A stretch of DNA of 28,594 nt from a virus (Duplodnaviria; Caudoviricetes). This document shows positions 2,510-24,801 of the stretch, piece after piece; position 1 is the first letter of the stretch, and each line of letters begins with the position of its first letter. The stretch spans positions 1-28,594 of the IMG/VR virus record IMGVR_UViG_3300020045_003705; one strand, 5' to 3'. The notes beneath the pieces were generated by a model that saw nothing but the letters and a program-made list of their open reading frames with translations, had not been told where the DNA came from and searched no databases. A program made the translations under genes and the position numbers.

Positions 2510-3619
2510 ATGAAGGTCACCGAACTGTTCACCGCCCAGAAAGAGCTCCGCGCCCTGGGCTCCGAAATCGCCAAGGTTGCCGAAACCGAAAAGCGCGGCC
2601 TCAACGCCATGGAAGAGAAACGCCTGTCGGACATTGAGTCCCAGGTCAAAAGCCTCGACACCCAGATCGACGCCGAACTGCGAGCGCCGATGAACACGCC
2701 CAACATCCCCGAGAACCGGGCCACCCCCAAGCTCGAGAAGCTGACCCTGCGGTCGGTCATCGAAGCCATGACCCTGTCCAACCCCGAGCTTCGCGCCATG
2801 GCCTCCGGAGGCGCTGGCACCCCGAAGATGATTGAGGAGATCCTCGACATCGTCGCCGAGTCCAACCCGATGCGCGGCCTGGCCAGCGTCTACACCCTCC
2901 CCGGTGACGGCGCTGTCCCCGTGCCCGGAACTGCTACTGTCGCGTGGGCCGCTGAAGGTGCGACCATCACCCCCGCCGACGTGACCGTGACCCCCGTCCA
3001 GCTGAGCGCGTTCACCCTGCACGGTGGCATCACCGTCAACGACGCGACCATGATGGACGACTTCTACAACGTGTCCAAGCTCCTGAGCCAGGCCGCTGGT
3101 GGCGCCATCGGTGAAGCCGAAGCCACCGCCATGTTCGGCAACGGTGCGGGCGCGTCGAGTCCCCAGGGCTTGTTCAACGGCGGTACCATCGTGCAGACCA
3201 CGACCACCGCGACCGTCGTCCTCGCCGACATCCTGAACTTCATGCAGTCGCTAGAAACGAAGTGGCGCAGGGGCCGCGAGAAGCTGATTCTCTCGCCTTC
3301 GGTCCTCGCCGCCATCATCAACCTCAAGGACGCGACCATGAAGCTCGAGGTCGACACCCGGGCCGGTACCATCCAGGGCGTCCCCTACGTGCTGACCTCG
3401 CTGGCTCCCGCCTACGCCACCACGACCCTGACCAAGCTCATGGCCTACGGTGACTTCAAGCGCGGTTACGCCATCGCCCAGCGCGCCAGCGACCAGGGAA
3501 CCATTCAGTCCAAGGTCGTGCCCTCGGCTGTCGCCTTCGCCAGCAATGTGCTCTTCATGGAGCGCATCGACGGCCGCATCGTGGACGGCGCTGCCTACAA
3601 GGTCTGGCAGGTCAAGTAA
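2510..3619 (+). CDS. Major capsid protein, HK97 fold with N-terminal coiled-coil delta domain
   Basis: Position after protease; WAAEG, FGNGAG..PQGL, YGDFKRGY, ERIDGR motifs; GAGGAG RBS. Confidence 0.92.
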   Translation: MKVTELFTAQKELRALGSEIAKVAETEKRGLNAMEEKRLSDIESQVKSLDTQIDAELRAPMNTPNIPENRATPKLEKLTLRSVIEAMTLSNPELRAMASGGAGTPKMIEEILDIVAESNPMRGLASVYTLPGDGAVPVPGTATVAWAAEGATITPADVTVTPVQLSAFTLHGGITVNDATMMDDFYNVSKLLSQAAGGAIGEAEATAMFGNGAGASSPQGLFNGGTIVQTTTTATVVLADILNFMQSLETKWRRGREKLILSPSVLAAIINLKDATMKLEVDTRAGTIQGVPYVLTSLAPAYATTTLTKLMAYGDFKRGYAIAQRASDQGTIQSKVVPSAVAFASNVLFMERIDGRIVDGAAYKVWQVK

Positions 3620-10972: not shown

Positions 10973-13900
10973 GCACCTACTCCGTCCAGGTCAAATGGCC
11001 CGGTGATCCGTCGTTCACGGACCTAACCCCGGCGACCGATCGCAACTACAGCTTCGACCTCTACTCATGCGCCAAGGACTTCAAGTTTGTGAAGAATACG
11101 TTTCAGGTCGAGGTAGTCTACTCCTCGGCCCTGGCGCTCAAGCTGTTGTCCCTGCTACCCTCCGACCTCGTGCCCTTCACTGTCGACAAGGACGCGGTGC
11201 GCATCTTCACCGGCTACCTCATCCCTGTCGACTCCGTGGGCTATGCGTCTTGGCGGCGCACCACGATCCCGCTGACCGTGCAAGACCCGTCCCTGGCCCT
11301 GGACTGCGCCCTCGCTTCGGATCTGGTGTACCTCGACCACTGGCTGTCCAAGCCCTCCGACACGGCGCACTCGCTCCTGCACAAGCTCTTTCCCATGGCC
11401 TCGGCGACGGTCGCCTACACCCCGCCCAACACCGCGACGACCTCGACCATGGGCGGCGTGTTCAACCCCGAAACCAACAACTACCTCCCGCTGTTCCTGG
11501 CCACCGCTGGCGACAACCTCCTCGAGGCCCTGACTAATCTTCTGTGGCAACAGGGATGGCGCTGGTGGTTCGACGCTGACGGAACCGCTCAGTTTGCGCC
11601 CTGGATCAACACAGTCGGCGCTTCAGTCACCTTCTCGGTTGCCAACGAAAACGTCATCGACGGGTCTTTCCGCATCGACCGGACGGGGTTCGTTGAGGAC
11701 TCGGTTGAGGTGGAATACTCGACGGCCGGCACTCTTGTTCACATCGGCAAGACTGGGGAAGGGTGGTCATGCTTCAAGGCTTCCGACCCCGCGCAGACCA
11801 TACCGCTCAAGATCGATGGTACGGCCCAGAAGTCCCTTGAGGTCGCCTACTCGTCCACCACTCAAATCACCATCGTCGCCCCTGCCGAAGCGGGTGGGAA
11901 GTCGTTGCTGACGTGGGGCATCGCCAAGATACGCTTCTTTGTGCAGGACCGATGGCACTACGACAATTGGGCCCACGTCCAGGCGGGCGTGGACGGGTCC
12001 GGGTACGTCATCCCCACCTACCAGCACATCGTAGGAGATCTGTACCTTGGCCGCCGCTGGCTTGAGCTCGACACTGGAACCGGCGTGGTGACCGAAGTCT
12101 CCCGCATCGACGCCACCTACGGGACCCTTGGTTTCAGCGTCACGGGCTACTCCTATTCTTCGGGCGTGATCAACTTCAACCTCGTGGCCTCCGGCGCGCC
12201 AACACTAGGGACCGCCCTCCAGATAGGCATCCAGATCCCCGACCTCACGGGCACGGTTCACGGCGACAACCTGACGGCCAAGAGCACCGGAGCGCGCGGG
12301 ACTAAGGCGAAGAAGTACCGCGTCGGCCTCCCGACAAATGAGGCCATGGCCGAGAACCTCGCGGACTTCCTGCGACAGAACCTCATCGGACTTCCTCAGG
12401 TCTACGCGCTCAAGTCCTATGGCGACTACGCGCTCGGGGCCGGGTGCACTGTGGACATCGGCGGCATCACGGCCACCGGGTTCATCCACGGGAAAAGCTA
12501 CGACGAATCCTCGCGGTCCTTCGGCTACAAGATCAAGCAGTTGTCTGCCGCCACCACGGGGACCACGACGATCACTTCGCCAACCGACGACGACAGCAAC
12601 CTCGTGCCCGACCTGGTGCCTGAGCCTCCGGTCGAGGAATACTACATCCTGACCTCCTCTGCTTCCGTGGCCATGGCCGCGTCCGGGGCGATGAGTCCCG
12701 CGACCCTCTACGCCACGGGGTACCGCAGACTCGGCGGCGGTGACGGTGTCCCGATCCTGGGGCGCTTCAAGATCTACGAGACGGCAGACGGCACGACCTG
12801 GACGACGGTCTACACTTCGGCCTCCGACGAGGCGTCGAAGGACTACGCGCCGTCCGTGGCCGCAACCAAGGGTATCAAGTTCGAGTTCTTCGCCGCCGGC
12901 GGGACTGTGACACTACTGGCCGTGTACAACGTCTCGGTCGCCGTGGCCTCTGACTACGTGGCCGAGTTCGTCGTCGATGCGGTCGCCACCCAGACGGCGA
13001 AGTATCGCGGCTGCTTCACCGTTGACCCCGCCGTGGACAACCACTTGGGCGACCTCTACCTCTACACCACGTCCCTCACTACCGGAGCGGGCGACTCGGT
13101 CCTTCGCATCTACACGCTGTCCGGGTGGGCCGACGTCACCTCACCGACGAGCGACCAGATCGCGCTCGCACAAGGGGACATCTTCAGGCGAGCAACCTTC
13201 CTCGAGGGTGGCGTGATCGTCCCCGTTCGCTCGACTGACTTCGTCCTTCGCCTGTTCAGCGAGTTCATCAGCGCCTACTCGGTGCAGTTCCAGGATACGG
13301 TCGGCTCGACGGCTGGCGGCGGCGGCACTCCCACGGCTGGCGACATGCTGATTTACATGGGCAAAGATCCGCGCCTGACGGGGACTCGTCCCTACGAGTT
13401 CGCCATCAAGGAATTCATCGGGTCCAATGGAGTTCAGGAGGAATGGATGGCTCACTTGCTCACGAAGTTTTTGACCAGCGGCGTGCTGGCGTTGGTGTTG
13501 TCAGGGTGTCTTCAGGCGACACAGGTCACCTCGTCGCCGGGGAAGGTGTGGAACGAGGTTACCCATCCTTTCGGCGCTTCGCAGATATTGATAGTGGCAC
13601 ACGGCAACGGCGTATGGGTTGCCGTTGGTGTGTCGGGCAAGATTGCTCGTTCTACTGACGACGGCGTGACCTGGGGATCGCTTATCACGAACCCGTTTGG
13701 GACCGATTCAATAACCACTGTTGAGTACAGCAACGGCGTATGGGTTGCCGTTGGTGTGTCGGGCAAGATTGCTCGCTCTACGGACGGTGGTGTGACCTGG
13801 GGATCGCTTATCACGAACCCGTTTGGGACGTCTACCATAAACACGCTCTCCAGTGGAAACGGCACCTGGATCGCTGGCGCAGATGGTGGCAAGATTGCTC

Positions 13901-14619
13901 GCTCTACGGACGGTGGTGTGACATGGGGATCGCTTATCACGAACCCGTTTGGGGCTACGATTATTCGCTCAATCTCACACGGAACTGGAAGCTGGATCGC
14001 TGGCGGGGATACCGGCAAGGTTGCGCGATCCACTGACGACGGAGTCACATGGCTGGCGGTGTCTACAGAGATTTCGTCCCATGGGACAGCTTTGTCTTGG
14101 GGCGGGTTGGATTTCTCTGACCTTGGGTCGTTCGTAATGATTGGATACGACGGAATCTCTGCCTCCTACATCCTCCGCTCCATCCCCCTCGAAGCTGGCG
14201 GCGGCGTGGTCGGCAAGGGTATCGAGGCGCGAGGACGCTACATCGACATGAGCGATGGTACCCGCATCTGGAACACGGTCAACGACTCCCGCATCACCAC
14301 GGGGACGGTCAACCGGACGGAGACTGTGGTGGCGCTGGAGGTAGGGCAGATGGCCCTCATTGAGTGGGCGTGTGGAATCACCGGAGGCACGGCCAGGGCA
14401 ATCACATTCGCCCTCCCTGCCGTGGGCACGTATCAGGTCGACATTGACCTCGCGCTCGTCCCGACCAACGTTCTCGCGGCATCGGTCCACTCGGCCATCG
14501 CTGGTGGCAAAGTCTACTCGGGCGGCACTGTGGCCGGTGGTTCAAGTGTCGTCGTCAACGGTTTGGTTACCAGTGGATTTTCTGAGATCTTCAGCGGAAC
14601 CGTCAAGCGAATCACGTAA
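10969..14619 (+). CDS. Large tail tip/fibre protein with Asp-box beta-propeller repeats
   Basis: 1216 aa beta-rich, follows tape measure; four 42-aa repeats with STDxGVTW; GRYIDMSDGTRIW fibre C-terminal motif. Confidence 0.85.
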   Translation: MSTYSVQVKWPGDPSFTDLTPATDRNYSFDLYSCAKDFKFVKNTFQVEVVYSSALALKLLSLLPSDLVPFTVDKDAVRIFTGYLIPVDSVGYASWRRTTIPLTVQDPSLALDCALASDLVYLDHWLSKPSDTAHSLLHKLFPMASATVAYTPPNTATTSTMGGVFNPETNNYLPLFLATAGDNLLEALTNLLWQQGWRWWFDADGTAQFAPWINTVGASVTFSVANENVIDGSFRIDRTGFVEDSVEVEYSTAGTLVHIGKTGEGWSCFKASDPAQTIPLKIDGTAQKSLEVAYSSTTQITIVAPAEAGGKSLLTWGIAKIRFFVQDRWHYDNWAHVQAGVDGSGYVIPTYQHIVGDLYLGRRWLELDTGTGVVTEVSRIDATYGTLGFSVTGYSYSSGVINFNLVASGAPTLGTALQIGIQIPDLTGTVHGDNLTAKSTGARGTKAKKYRVGLPTNEAMAENLADFLRQNLIGLPQVYALKSYGDYALGAGCTVDIGGITATGFIHGKSYDESSRSFGYKIKQLSAATTGTTTITSPTDDDSNLVPDLVPEPPVEEYYILTSSASVAMAASGAMSPATLYATGYRRLGGGDGVPILGRFKIYETADGTTWTTVYTSASDEASKDYAPSVAATKGIKFEFFAAGGTVTLLAVYNVSVAVASDYVAEFVVDAVATQTAKYRGCFTVDPAVDNHLGDLYLYTTSLTTGAGDSVLRIYTLSGWADVTSPTSDQIALAQGDIFRRATFLEGGVIVPVRSTDFVLRLFSEFISAYSVQFQDTVGSTAGGGGTPTAGDMLIYMGKDPRLTGTRPYEFAIKEFIGSNGVQEEWMAHLLTKFLTSGVLALVLSGCLQATQVTSSPGKVWNEVTHPFGASQILIVAHGNGVWVAVGVSGKIARSTDDGVTWGSLITNPFGTDSITTVEYSNGVWVAVGVSGKIARSTDGGVTWGSLITNPFGTSTINTLSSGNGTWIAGADGGKIARSTDGGVTWGSLITNPFGATIIRSISHGTGSWIAGGDTGKVARSTDDGVTWLAVSTEISSHGTALSWGGLDFSDLGSFVMIGYDGISASYILRSIPLEAGGGVVGKGIEARGRYIDMSDGTRIWNTVNDSRITTGTVNRTETVVALEVGQMALIEWACGITGGTARAITFALPAVGTYQVDIDLALVPTNVLAASVHSAIAGGKVYSGGTVAGGSSVVVNGLVTSGFSEIFSGTVKRIT
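13605..14053 (+). repeat. 126-bp tandem coding repeat (about 3.5-4 units)
   Basis: CAACGGCGTATGGGTTGCCGTTGGTGTGTCGGGCAAGATTGCTCG at 13605 and 13731; GGGGATCGCTTATCACGAACCCGTTTGGG three times. Confidence 0.9.
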
Positions 14620-15784: not shown

Positions 15785-16305
15785 AATGGGCGTCACTCGG
15801 TCGCTCATCCTGTTCGTCCTCGGGTTCGCTGTTGGCGCTGTCGCTGTTCTGTGCGTTGTGCTTCTTCGCCCTCCCGTCGCCTCTGACCGCGCAATCGACA
15901 ACCAGCGCGCCGCTGCCGCCCGTACAGCCGCAGAGCGTGGGCTGGTCCTTGAGCAAAGCCTCGCTCGAGTTGGTGACGCGCTTGACCGAGCGCAACGACG
16001 AGGTGCGGACCTTGCTCGCCAAGTTGGCGAGCTCCGAAGCGAGATGGCAAGCGGCCGAGAACAAAGTCACGAGCTTGTCGTTGACGGTGGACGCCTTGCA
16101 GACGGACTTGCTGGCGACCTCGAACTTGCTCGGCTCATCGCGGAAGGAGTTGGTCGACTACAGGGCGGCAGTCGCAACCGTCCACGACCTCGACCGGGCG
16201 GCGGTGAAGCTGGCCCGCGACCAGCGCGACGGCGCGGCCCTTGGCGGGCTCATCGTCGGCGCGATCCTAGTCGAGCTTGCCCACTTAGTTGGATGGATGC
16301 CTTAG
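15781..16305 (+). CDS. Spanin-like protein: N-terminal signal/Cys, coiled coil, C-terminal TM
   Basis: GTGA overlap with endolysin stop; LLALSLFCALCFFAL; heptad core; ALGGLIVGAILVELA. Confidence 0.65.
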   Translation: MKWASLGRSSCSSSGSLLALSLFCALCFFALPSPLTAQSTTSAPLPPVQPQSVGWSLSKASLELVTRLTERNDEVRTLLAKLASSEARWQAAENKVTSLSLTVDALQTDLLATSNLLGSSRKELVDYRAAVATVHDLDRAAVKLARDQRDGAALGGLIVGAILVELAHLVGWMP

Positions 16306-16631
16306 GCTGTAGGCGGTTGCTTGCGAGGGCGACCGCCTTTCTTCCCGTTCTCCGCGCTGGTGGGCTTCTTGGCGAGGCCACCCTTTCGGCCCATGGTGGC
16401 GGCGGCGGACTCGAGAGTGGCAATGGCCTCGTTGGCGATACGCTCATTATCCTCGGGAGTCCTGAGCGCCGCCTGCACGTCTGTAAGGTAGTGCATTGCA
16501 AGCCCGGTCAGTTGCCCCTTGTTTGCGTATGCCATCTCTCGGATGGCCAGCAGTACGTCTGCAAGTTCGCGCTTTGTCGCAAACATGACGATTTCCCCTC
16601 GGTCGTGGATTTTGGCAACTACCTCTTGTAG
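15786..16631 (+). CDS. i-spanin-like protein: N-terminal TM plus coiled coil (only first ~130 aa protein-like)
   Basis: LILFVLGFAVGAVAVLCVVLL then helical region; embedded in alternative frame; tail beyond ~16180 looks non-coding. Confidence 0.5.
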   Translation: MGVTRSLILFVLGFAVGAVAVLCVVLLRPPVASDRAIDNQRAAAARTAAERGLVLEQSLARVGDALDRAQRRGADLARQVGELRSEMASGREQSHELVVDGGRLADGLAGDLELARLIAEGVGRLQGGSRNRPRPRPGGGEAGPRPARRRGPWRAHRRRDPSRACPLSWMDALGCRRLLARATAFLPVLRAGGLLGEATLSAHGGGGGLESGNGLVGDTLIILGSPERRLHVCKVVHCKPGQLPLVCVCHLSDGQQYVCKFALCRKHDDFPSVVDFGNYLL

Positions 16632-16652
16632 GACTTTATTTTCATCGGTCAT
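16302..16652 (-). CDS. 116-aa protein with basic KGG..KGGRPRK (AT-hook-like) tail, putative DNA-binding regulator
   Basis: AAGGAG RBS before ATG 16652; C-terminus AAATMGRKGG..ENGKKGGRPRK. Confidence 0.8.
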   Translation of the reverse strand: MTDENKVLQEVVAKIHDRGEIVMFATKRELADVLLAIREMAYANKGQLTGLAMHYLTDVQAALRTPEDNERIANEAIATLESAAATMGRKGGLAKKPTSAENGKKGGRPRKQPPTA

Positions 16653-16664
16653 TTTTGATCTCCT

Positions 16665-16723
16665 TGGCTTCCGCCGACGCTTTCGCGTTTCGGCCCGGAG
16701 CCACCGGGCCATCATCAGGGCGG
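16665..16723 (-). ncRNA. Type I hammerhead ribozyme with loop II pseudoknot
   Basis: Minus strand: CCGCC-CUGAUGA-U-GGCCCGG(UGGCU)CCGGGCC-GAA-ACGC(GAAA)GCGU-C/GGCGG-A-AGCCA; all core bases and three perfect stems. Confidence 0.93.
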
Positions 16724-17176
16724 CTAGTAGGTTCGCCCTCCGAGGGTCATCATGGAGTCGACTCCCTTGGCGTGGGCGGCGTATTCGCGCTCGTCCTTTT
16801 CGGCGTTGGCAACGATAGCCTGGTAGTCGATCCAAGTCTGATCGGCTTCGGCCTCGGCGACAACTTCGGCGTAGAGCGCCTTGATGGCGTAGTAGTGGGA
16901 GGGGTCGGAGAAGGATAGTGCATCGGCCTGCCCGCCAATATGCTTGCGTCCATTAAGTTCTGCGTCTCCAGCTGGAATCCACATCCCGATAACAGTCTTG
17001 CCGCCGAACTTCGCGGTGATGTCAGTGGTGTTGATCGTGACGCGCTCGTCGACTTCGACTTCCCAGCCGTCAGCCGAGGTGGCCTTGCGGACCATCTTGC
17101 TTTCGCGTTCGGCGGTGATTGTCACGTAGACGGTTCCAATCTTGCTTTCCCAACTGTAAGTCTTGCTCGCTTTCAT
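16724..17176 (-). CDS. Hypothetical protein (150 aa)
   Basis: AAGGAG RBS, first gene after strong promoter; no family recognised. Confidence 0.85.
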   Translation of the reverse strand: MKASKTYSWESKIGTVYVTITAERESKMVRKATSADGWEVEVDERVTINTTDITAKFGGKTVIGMWIPAGDAELNGRKHIGGQADALSFSDPSHYYAIKALYAEVVAEAEADQTWIDYQAIVANAEKDEREYAAHAKGVDSMMTLGGRTY

Positions 17177-17197
17177 TTCTTCGATCTCCTTAATACC

Positions 17198-17226
17198 AAT
17201 ATAAACCTAATCGCTTAGGTTGTCAA
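17198..17226 (-). promoter_or_regulatory. Sigma70 promoter with palindromic operator in the spacer
   Basis: TTGACA-17-TATATT on minus strand; AACCTAA-TCGC-TTAGGTT at 17204-17221. Confidence 0.88.
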
Positions 17227-17418
17227 AGGAAATCGGTGGAAATCGTAAAGACTTGCTGGCGGGCGCTGGCGGGGTTATCCTTGGAGCATTGGCGGTGCTA
17301 GGGGCCAAGGCTATGGGGTGGATTAGGTAGCCTTTCCAGCCTGCAAAAGCGTGTGGAATCAACCCCAGCGTCAACCCTGCCGCCAGCAAGTCCTTTACCC
17401 ACATGACCGTGCCACTCC

Positions 17419-17460
17419 CTTGTAATGCGCAGGTCCGGGGTCCGATTCCCCGAGTTGGCT
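17419..17460 (+). mobile_element. attP: attP core: 3' half of tRNA-Thr(UGU)
   Basis: Anticodon loop CTTGTAA, TGCGC, variable AGGTC, T arm CGGGG-TCCGATT-CCCCG, acceptor strand AGTTGGC-T; 5' half absent; 140 bp from integrase. Confidence 0.88.
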
Positions 17461-17468
17461 TACCTTTT

Positions 17469-17504
17469 AGGGCCGTCTACCGGACAAGACGGCCCTTTTT
17501 CTTT
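17469..17504 (+). terminator. Intrinsic terminator after tRNA fragment
   Basis: AGGGCCGTCT/AGACGGCCCT 10-bp stem then TTTTCTTT. Confidence 0.88.
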
Positions 17505-23610: not shown

Positions 23611-24317
23611 AAGGCTGGCTGATTGAACGAAGCGTAAACGGACGGGCGCTGTGGTGGTGCCCCGGACAATGCACGATCCCAGGGCATACTACCGACGCAT
23701 CCAAGGCCGTCAGATTTGCCCGGAAGGAGGACGCTGAGCTAGTCCGAAAGGAACTCATGGGCGACGAGGCTTACGTCACCGAGCACGTTTGGCAGAATGA
23801 CACCCTCACCCCCGCCGAACCAGCGGTATGGTACACACGCGCTCAAATGGTCGACGCGATGGATGCGGCTTTTGGCTGGTGGGCAGATGGCAATGACACA
23901 ACAGAAGGCGAGTCGTTCGCCAACTTTGAAGGGCGGTACCTTTCGGAGATTGCCCCCGCCCCGCAACCCGTGGACCTGAGTGGGGCGATGTACGTCCCCG
24001 GTGCCATGTGCAAGAAGCATCTGATTTACTACAAGACCAGGGACGGCGGTCAGAACAAGACCGTGCAGCACTGCCCGAAGTGCGACGATGAGAACAACCC
24101 GTTCCTCGCCCACCTCACCGCACAAGCCACGCCGCAAGTGGTGGGGAGTTGCGGATGGAGTCAAGACGAGTGGTCCGAGTCGTGGTCGGCAGGGTGTGGA
24201 TGTGAGTGGGTATTCCCCGACGGAGGCCCCGCTGAAAACGATATGAAGTATTGCCCTTCATGCGGGAAGCCCGTGAGCCTCCCCGCACCACCGACCAAAG
24301 GAGCAAGCCGTGAGTGA
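23607..24317 (+). CDS. Mosaic hypothetical protein with CxxC zinc-ribbon motifs
   Basis: GTG 23607 after GGAGG; CKKH..CPKC and C-terminal YCPSCG. Confidence 0.7.
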   Translation: MKGWLIERSVNGRALWWCPGQCTIPGHTTDASKAVRFARKEDAELVRKELMGDEAYVTEHVWQNDTLTPAEPAVWYTRAQMVDAMDAAFGWWADGNDTTEGESFANFEGRYLSEIAPAPQPVDLSGAMYVPGAMCKKHLIYYKTRDGGQNKTVQHCPKCDDENNPFLAHLTAQATPQVVGSCGWSQDEWSESWSAGCGCEWVFPDGGPAENDMKYCPSCGKPVSLPAPPTKGASRE

Positions 24318-24801
24318 TCTGAAACCGTGCCCGTTTTGTGGGGCAACGCCGCACCGACAAATGACCAAGGCAGTCAAGGTTTTTGTGAGGGATGAACCTG
24401 ACGGAACAGGCCACTACGAAAACGAACAGCATGAAGTCGCCAAATGTCCGCACGGTTGTGCAACCCTTACTCCCGACAAGTGGAACACCCGAGCCCGTGA
24501 CGCCGAGGTTGCTCGGTTGCGGGAGGCTTTGGATAACGCCCGAGAGTCCATGATGGATCTTCGCAAGGAATCGCCACGGAGTCGCCTTGTCGAGGGTATG
24601 GAGCGAACGAGGGACATAGTACGCAAAGCCCTCGCCGCCAACCCCACAAGCGAGAGGGTGGTGCCAACGGTGGAGGATGTTGCTAGACTGGTAGATTCGT
24701 GGGTACTGGACAACATTCCCAACGGTTTGCCGTACCTCGCCTACACTGACACCTTGAGCAAGGCCATCCACGCCCTGCTCCAGCGCAAAGTGGGACGGTG
24801 A
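24310..24801 (+). CDS. Lar (restriction alleviation)-like zinc-finger protein
   Basis: LKPCPFCG..C..C..WNTR signature; AAGGAG RBS. Confidence 0.75.
   Translation: MSDLKPCPFCGATPHRQMTKAVKVFVRDEPDGTGHYENEQHEVAKCPHGCATLTPDKWNTRARDAEVARLREALDNARESMMDLRKESPRSRLVEGMERTRDIVRKALAANPTSERVVPTVEDVARLVDSWVLDNIPNGLPYLAYTDTLSKAIHALLQRKVGR

Follow-up and report, generated by a model that had tools for sequence, protein, structure and literature searches.

What switches a self-contained pair of genes lying on the strand opposite the late operon of a temperate phage, and what the pair does, are questions raised by positions 16302 to 17226 of the virus record IMGVR_UViG_3300020045_003705 (IMG/VR; Duplodnaviria, Caudoviricetes). 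The window referred to below is the whole stretch of 28,594 nucleotides (nt) that was analysed, i.e., the entire 28.6-kb contig of a temperate siphophage. Its minus-strand cassette comprises a strong promoter, a gene for a protein of 150 amino acids (aa), a hammerhead ribozyme and a gene for a 116-aa protein with a basic tail. The account favoured here, which the sequence comparisons described below make reasonably probable, is that the 116-aa protein binds, through its basic C-terminal domain, a palindrome in the promoter spacer and thereby shuts the promoter, and that the hammerhead cuts the message between the two genes.

The cassette opens with a near-consensus sigma-70-type promoter (17198..17226, minus strand) that matches the consensus at 11 of 12 positions, with the −35 hexamer TTGACA at 17226-17221, a spacer of 17 nt and the −10 hexamer TATATT at 17203-17198. 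Promoter-like sites of this kind occurred twice in 4.5 kb, compared to 0.7 times in shuffled sequence. The initial annotation had noted an AACCTAA-N4-TTAGGTT palindrome within the spacer; this was confirmed, and the 18-bp element (AACCTAA-GCGA-TTAGGTT, arms and loop of 7-4-7; 17204..17221), predicted to be an operator from its sequence and from family comparison, was found to occupy the whole spacer plus the final base of the −35 hexamer. Its 14-bp family core, CCYAA-NCGN-TTRGG at 17206-17219, is the sole site in the contig with fewer than two mismatches to that core, and the same 18-mer recurs letter for letter in a promoter of an unrelated podovirus (locus L002). Since the palindrome lies 5′ of the predicted start site, it is regarded as a DNA element and not as an RNA hairpin of the transcript. 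A string search located exactly two copies of the ribosome-binding leader AAGGAGATC in the contig, starting at 17191 and 16665 (17183..17191 and 16657..16665, both on the minus strand), one ahead of each cassette gene, in agreement with the shared leader noticed initially.

The second gene (16302..16652, minus strand) is the open reading frame (ORF) described at the outset, from 16652 to 16302. It encodes the 116-aa protein P0002, in which a helical N-terminal region of no known family is followed, at approximately residues 82-112 (16317..16409, minus strand), by a basic helix-GxKGG-linker-NGKKGGRP domain that is predicted to be a DNA-binding autorepressor. A word-index search retrieved two close relatives, whose likeness resides mainly in the C-terminal 35 residues, and the ESM Atlas gave no usable match. 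The domain of about 30 residues stands alone in proteins of 42-48 aa or is fused to many unrelated regions. Searches with the domain against Pfam, PHROGs, NCBIfam and PDB sequences yielded nothing above weak noise, and a PDB profile search returned weak matches to alphaRep and invertase alone. The structure model of a stand-alone member consists of two helices and a coil, is of low confidence (pLDDT 71, pTM 0.30) and found no Foldseek match. The early description of a repressor without a helix-turn-helix (HTH) thus fits the missing HTH profile match and the small stand-alone members, but gains little from this model. The accompanying label “KGG/AT-hook” describes a resemblance and no membership, as there was no Pfam match to either family. 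Like AT-hooks and KGG (stress-induced) repeats, the domain has short segments rich in Gly, Lys and Arg that end in GRP, with GxKGG repeated. The consensus core of the AT-hook is R-G-R-P. In contrast, the invariant core of the domain is G-G-R-P, it has no Pfam match and its partner is a palindrome of 12 or 14 bp instead of AT tracts; by sequence, it is not an AT-hook. In one locus (L454, around position 3500) the domain is fused N-terminally to a region that by eye resembles an XRE-like HTH, and operator half-sites with another spacing lie upstream. Matches to an Acinetobacter “putative repressor” (tblastn, E 5) were rejected, being located in replication genes.

The pairing of domain and palindrome was examined in both search directions. 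A weak tblastn match led to the podovirus of locus L002, where the 18-bp palindrome in a TTGACA promoter is followed by a gene for ArdC, a type II hammerhead and, as last gene, a domain protein. When viral sequences were searched by promoter, the domain was encoded on the same strand within 2.5 kb downstream at 19 of 28 distinct sites but at none of 146 control strong promoters; among sites with at least 1500 nt of flank the figures were 15/22 and 0/73. In GTDB genomes, where the 14-bp pattern also matches by chance, the domain accompanied 18 of 27 sites with a −10 hexamer and enough flank, compared to 1 of 46 sites lacking the −10. The palindrome without further context is mostly a chance match in IMG/VR also (52 of 68 sites had neither promoter nor domain). 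Searching by protein, an operator-promoter was found upstream of 23 of 52 domains, as opposed to 2/52 on the opposite strand, 3/47 downstream and 8/262 in control windows, and all three additional records of the long form of the domain (see below) that were fetched by protein carry a 14-bp site immediately before the operon. The pair extends across Cyanobacteria, Acidobacteria, Spirochaetes, the Candidate Phyla Radiation, Actinobacteria and Proteobacteria. The promoter-first search delivered 81 cassettes. Grouped by their intervening DNA, from promoter to domain, they form 60 clusters; they lie in all orientations relative to their flanking genes (24 same/same, 17 opposite/opposite, 17 same/opposite and 9 opposite/same). 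One further record (L591, BK063671.1), whose host is listed as Methanomicrobiales, combines a long-form domain with a bacterial-type TTGACA promoter containing a 14-bp site, so that either the host is mislabelled or the module has reached archaeal viruses.

The proteins missed by the first search pattern represent a short form of the domain, which is four residues smaller and lacks the RKGG after the first Gly, and the promoters of short-form proteins carry a 12-bp palindrome. A scan for promoters with this palindrome yielded 75 loci with 64 distinct sites, of which 38 were followed by the short form, none by the long form, while 3 were classed as other and 23 had no domain (8 of these with short flank). 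The 14-bp sites were never associated with the short form; the long form followed 19 of the 28 viral sites and 19 of 46 GTDB sites, three more of which were classed as other. Promoter-first, the 14-bp operator thus went with 38 long and 0 short domains and the 12-bp operator with 0 long and 38 short ones (Fisher's p 3e-22), a table that ignores shared descent, includes at least 6 of 38 short cases on the contigs that had suggested the 12-bp pattern, and uses rules for long and short forms that were written after the 12-bp palindrome had been noticed. In three of the 60 clusters both types are present, the domain having switched along with the operator, which counts against pure inheritance of the match between form and operator. 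Protein-first, with loose criteria, 20 of 50 long-form proteins had the matching operator, 1 a mismatched one, 1 was a tie and 28 had none, and of 30 short-form proteins 13 were matched, 2 mismatched and 15 had none (control windows 5/262). The spacers of the operator promoters are mostly 17 bp long and the hexamers strong; together with the position of the palindrome 5′ of the predicted start, this makes repression likelier than activation or a role in RNA. The simplest reading of these patterns is that the domain binds the palindrome directly and that the insertion sets the spacing of the half-sites. The initial proposal of an autorepressor acting on a palindromic promoter is supported by the co-occurrence in both directions, by the variable genes in between and by the operator length that tracks the domain form, and it is very probable, from sequence comparison, that domain family and palindrome constitute a repressor-operator pair.

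Between the two genes, a type I hammerhead (16671..16723, minus strand) was identified by an anatomy script and by comparison with seven related viral ribozymes. As first reported, it begins directly behind the 150-aa ORF, at 16723, the first base past the stop codon. It consists of a stem I of 5 bp, CUGAUGA, a stem II of 7 bp, GAAA and stem III, and agrees with the type I core (CUGANGA, GAAA, UH, three stems) apart from one extra U after A9 (16711); cleavage is predicted after GUC at 16676. Rfam gave no ribozyme match in the window or in a 200-nt stretch of sequence, probably because of this extra U. In the viroid ribozyme CChMVd plus, an extra base between A9 and G10.1, there an A, occurs naturally, and a U at this position raised trans-cleavage 3-4 fold (accessible text of PMC3705267). 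Among 100 Markov copies of the window, one hammerhead match with 11 stem pairs was obtained and none with the 15 pairs of the window. A pattern scan for the core retrieved eight viral stretches, seven of which, but not the eighth, contain full type I ribozymes. When these seven are aligned with the window, pairing is 100% in stem I as well as in stem II, where seven pairs changed on both sides; nine such pairs are counted for the hammerhead stems altogether. None of 500 shuffles attained the covariation score, and slid controls paired at most 49%. The core and stem III had been set in advance by the search pattern and contribute no information here. In addition, loop II (UGGCU, 16703-16699) is complementary to a predicted pseudoknot strand, AGCCA (16665..16669, minus strand), formed by the five bases after stem I, the last of which also belongs to the second leader. 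This pairing is retained in three of seven relatives, changed with pairing preserved in three and absent from one, and is 75% paired on the MAFFT alignment. The predicted cut lies 23 nt ahead of the start codon of the second gene. By anatomy and covariation the hammerhead is real, and its cleavage is predicted. Viral hammerheads with the extra U after A9 form a lineage of types I, II and III (L581-L587, L173, L554), of which the type I members share the loop II pseudoknot.

Phage hammerheads beside genes in prophage operons, including ardA, have been described together with pseudoknots, and those flanking genes were suggested to divide polycistronic phage RNA into pieces the size of a gene (Perreault 2011; accessible text of PMC3088659). 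Compared with that text, the ribozyme of the window is likewise intergenic and equipped with a pseudoknot, but differs in its position between a cargo gene and a predicted autorepressor gene, in its extra U and in a pseudoknot that touches the ribosome-binding site. The expectation that hammerheads travel with the palindrome promoter was not borne out: they are missing from 88 of 89 promoter-first cassettes, the remaining one (L554) having a type III hammerhead with the same extra U. The protein-first search added two cassettes, those of L002 and L426, the latter keeping the order of the window although its components differ (a promoter with the 12-bp site, a cargo gene, a type II hammerhead immediately behind the stop codon and a short-form protein). 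Since the window has type I, L002 and L426 type II and L554 type III, ribozymes of three types have been recruited to these operons. The hammerhead is an optional part of the cassette.

The first gene is the annotated 150-aa ORF (17176-16724; 16724..17176, minus strand), and its product is the cargo protein P0001. A family search gave 25 matches at E≤0.001, of which 24 are distant relatives of similar size or fragments and one, a repeat protein of 1145 aa, was left out; 22 relatives were aligned with the 150-aa protein. It has no match in Pfam, PHROG, NCBIfam, PADLOC or the PDB, no homologue in the word-index search and no usable match in the ESM Atlas. The structure prediction called for initially produced a confident model (pLDDT 84.7) with a predicted beta-sheet domain and two long C-terminal helices, but no convincing known fold, as fold searches found nothing in the PDB and otherwise two uncharacterised phage proteins. 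A PH/EVH1-type fold was rejected and is noted as a lead only (best VIA Z 5.5, root-mean-square deviation 4.6, 86 aligned, below unrelated models). The family profile detected eight ORFs in all loci and none in control loci, and a pattern scan for further loci found one. The family provides the first gene of five other distinct operator cassettes (one long-type and four short-type, with two duplicates), where its members are followed by unrelated N-terminal domains. As a recurrent first cargo, the 150-aa protein is a candidate host-interaction protein. A distant relative heads a three-gene antisense cassette with a strong promoter among the tail genes of L497 (2413-3426, minus strand); that promoter has no 12- or 14-bp site, and the small Cys-rich protein encoded by the last gene has a first helix similar to the domain's first half. 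The cargo as a whole comprises 174 sequences in 133 clusters, 113 of them singletons, and names could be given to ArdC (once, as first cargo in L002), DUF2958 (once) and DUF4160/DUF2442 (in several). No Acr family was found when 85 + 92 cargo proteins were compared with Pfam and 73 + 87 with PHROGs, libraries that cover described Acrs only, and the anti-defence role is therefore deduced from the layout and the one ArdC neighbour; that the 150-aa cargo is an anti-defence protein is a nearly balanced proposition, leaning slightly to the negative.

According to the favoured account, the cassette would work as follows. On entry of the phage DNA the repressor would not yet be present, and host RNA polymerase would make a burst of cargo. 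The domain of about 30 residues would bind the palindrome, probably as two copies, and block the polymerase, as suggested by the co-occurrence and by the match of form and operator length. Self-cleavage, predicted from anatomy and covariation, would leave two RNAs, a cargo message capped at its 3′ end by two hairpins and a repressor message that has a 5′-OH end and a leader of 23 nt, and each could then be degraded and translated on its own. As long as the message is uncut, the predicted pseudoknot would abut the ribosome-binding site of the repressor and could delay its translation. The cargo, in the weakest of these steps, might counter a host defence.

Several observations weigh against this account, among them that the form-operator table takes no account of shared descent, the lack of Acr families in the cargo and the rarity of hammerheads in promoter-first cassettes. 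There was no operator-promoter within 2.5 kb upstream of 28/50 long and 15/30 short domains found by protein, and no domain downstream of 7/22 viral 14-bp promoters and 15/56 12-bp promoters (those with enough flank or a match). The last half of the domain (NGKKGGRP) also occurs within replication-initiator-like proteins that lack operators. The domain of the window itself keeps GRKGG and goes with a 14-bp site but is short of four linker residues, a deletion that takes out a nearly invariant Ser, and a Thr replaces a nearly invariant Ala; a similar deletion was seen in one relative alone (P0003, 58% identical). About half of the domains, those without a close upstream operator, may act in trans or differently. 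Some single phages carry two operator-promoters (L059/L060 and L062/L067); in L062/L067 neither has a domain within 2.5 kb, which suggests control in trans.

Pfam and PHROG scans found portal, prohead protease, capsid, tail tube, tape measure, M15 endolysin, integrase and a CI-like repressor in the contig. One flank of the cassette is formed by the endolysin (Pfam Peptidase_M15_4) and by ORFs that are spanin-like judging from their layout, with family matches absent; the other holds, ahead of the integrase, a terminator and a tRNA-like sequence (17411..17496, plus strand), of which only the 3′ half, with TGT in the anticodon loop, is present. Its T-arm aligned to a tRNA-like model below threshold and a whole tRNA was not found there, and the element is likely the attP for a tRNA-Thr gene. 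The placement given initially, antisense to the late operon with lysis genes on one side and attP on the other, agrees with the flanking genes and with this likely attP, and the cassette is a self-contained accessory unit. A frame of 32 codons (17232..17330, plus strand) is similar to the membrane segment at the C-terminus of the spanin-like ORF that ends at 16305, across the cassette (10/22 identical, pairwise E 1e-4) and is probably the former 3′ end of the spanin-like gene, a scar from insertion or exchange of the cassette. Another ORF with an inner-membrane-spanin-like start (15786-16631, plus strand) stays open for 281 codons antisense to nearly all of the 116-aa gene. Elsewhere on the plus strand, three repeats of about 126 bp in a 1216-aa tail protein (13500-14100) encode BNR/Asp-box-like propeller blades, and an early-region gene (24310-24801) has a weak match to a Lar-like restriction-alleviation family (phrog_599, E 2e-6).

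Morons are usually located beside attP, and the antisense cassette lies there too. It might accordingly keep the autorepression and yet be a moron expressed in the lysogen or a toxin-antitoxin-like pair, in which the 150-aa protein would be a toxin, exclusion or defence factor, the N-terminal helices of the 116-aa protein would neutralise it and the tail would repress. This is an unlikely explanation. In its favour, 7 GTDB loci and most of 27 plasmid records encode, behind a DUF4160 toxin, a DUF2442 antitoxin that ends in the domain, and DUF4160/DUF2442 (DhiTA) is a tested type II toxin-antitoxin pair (PMC8198452, PMC12724237; also 10.1101/2023.12.08.570793, all as far as their accessible text goes). 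Nine loci (L305, L314, L317, L323, L365, L369, L372, L589, L590) combine a DUF2442 protein bearing the C-terminal domain with a 14-bp site before the DUF4160 gene, and this site might serve a subset of DhiTA systems as operator; the accessible text of PMC8198452 and PMC12724237 makes no mention of a basic tail or an operator. The likeness to DhiTA is confined to the basic domain at the end of some DUF2442 antitoxins and to the 14-bp site that immediately precedes the operon, whereas neither protein of the window matches DUF4160 or DUF2442. Moreover, the N-terminal domains encoded behind the 150-aa family are unrelated to one another, which is not the pattern of a cognate toxin-antitoxin pair; at 42-48 aa, many of the domain proteins are too small for an antitoxin part, and the cargo has no toxin or PADLOC match.

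Rather improbable is the view that the family is a genuine repressor-operator pair of which the copy in the window has decayed, so that the promoter would be constitutive or controlled in trans and the tuning left to the ribozyme. The four-residue deletion, besides costing the nearly invariant Ser position, places a Pro in the second predicted helix and leaves a domain of short-form spacing next to a long-form operator. Against decay speaks that this operator is still a perfect palindrome with 7-bp arms and that the 58%-identical relative retains a similarly shortened linker. A metagenome scan for the linker variant of the window found 8-9 contigs, all of one other lineage with the same KPTSAENG segment, and this lineage has its own palindrome, an imperfect one of 15 bp lying over the −10. 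It is very unlikely that a host regulator binds the palindrome, or that activation takes place there, while the basic tail, as a non-specific nucleic-acid-binding or chromatin-like element, merely travels along. The NGKKGGRP half in replication-initiator-like proteins without operator and the operator promoters without a nearby domain would fit such a scenario, but operator length follows the form of the domain encoded in cis, the pair is present across many phyla from Cyanobacteria to Proteobacteria, and the mostly optimal 17-bp spacers and strong hexamers leave little to activate. That the main product is an antisense RNA that damps lysis, transcription running on into the spanin-like and endolysin genes and the ribozyme releasing a 3′ fragment, is scarcely credible: no intrinsic terminator was found on the minus strand 3′ of the second gene, and the stop codons of the converging 116-aa gene and spanin-like neighbour overlap at 16302-16305, but the relatives in all four flank orientations indicate that antisense placement is not a family trait, and both ORFs have strong leaders and belong to conserved families.

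Anti-defence operons of the acr-aca type are among the closest systems to the favoured autorepressor cassette. Their regulators Aca1-12 are HTH proteins, Aca13 is a coiled helix and Aca14 a ribbon-helix-helix protein (accessible text of PMC9410906, PMC12282945, PMC13551039, also for the following). The layout that the initial annotation had likened to acr-aca was recovered in so far as an inverted repeat lies in a strong core promoter and a small regulator comes last, behind variable small cargo; a regulator sometimes fused to cargo is a further shared feature. In contrast to acr-aca, the searches run gave the domain no Aca, HTH or ribbon-helix-helix profile or PDB-chain match, domain and operator come in two size classes, a hammerhead can precede the regulator and no known acr is among the cargo scanned. 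With neither a known Aca domain nor a known acr, the cassette cannot be filed as Aca. No description of the domain or its operators was found among the listed papers of the searchable literature, a search that did not extend to subscription journals and figures, and operator and peptide motifs are absent from the text supplements of PMC13551039 and PMC12282945, figures aside. The cassette thus apparently combines the autoregulatory logic of acr-aca and toxin-antitoxin operons with an undescribed DNA-binding module. A broader proposal, put forward tentatively and with somewhat less than even confidence, is that the helix-glycine-hinge-helix-basic-hook peptide of about 30 residues represents a novel class of repressors that bind DNA sequence-specifically, perhaps one of the smallest on record, and that a four-residue insertion would reset its half-site spacing by 2 bp. 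Phages, plasmids and toxin-antitoxin operons in many phyla would use it as a plug-in autorepressor, its operator-promoter would mark a large untouched pool of anti-defence genes, and hammerheads would have been recruited repeatedly to delay or uncouple repressor synthesis.

The window provides a clean case for studying the role of intergenic phage hammerheads, a question that has stood since 2011. Anti-CRISPR and other counter-defence genes are searched for mainly with Aca regulators as bait, and the known regulators stem mostly from a few well-studied host groups. Domain and operator together form a very specific new bait, as a short DNA pattern leads to 81 cassettes and 133 clusters of mostly orphan proteins. 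If the predicted binding holds true, the family would add a minimal module to the known DNA-binding proteins, one whose specificity code is built in and directly testable with two natural orthogonal pairs, and which could be used in studies of protein-DNA recognition and as a compact repressor.

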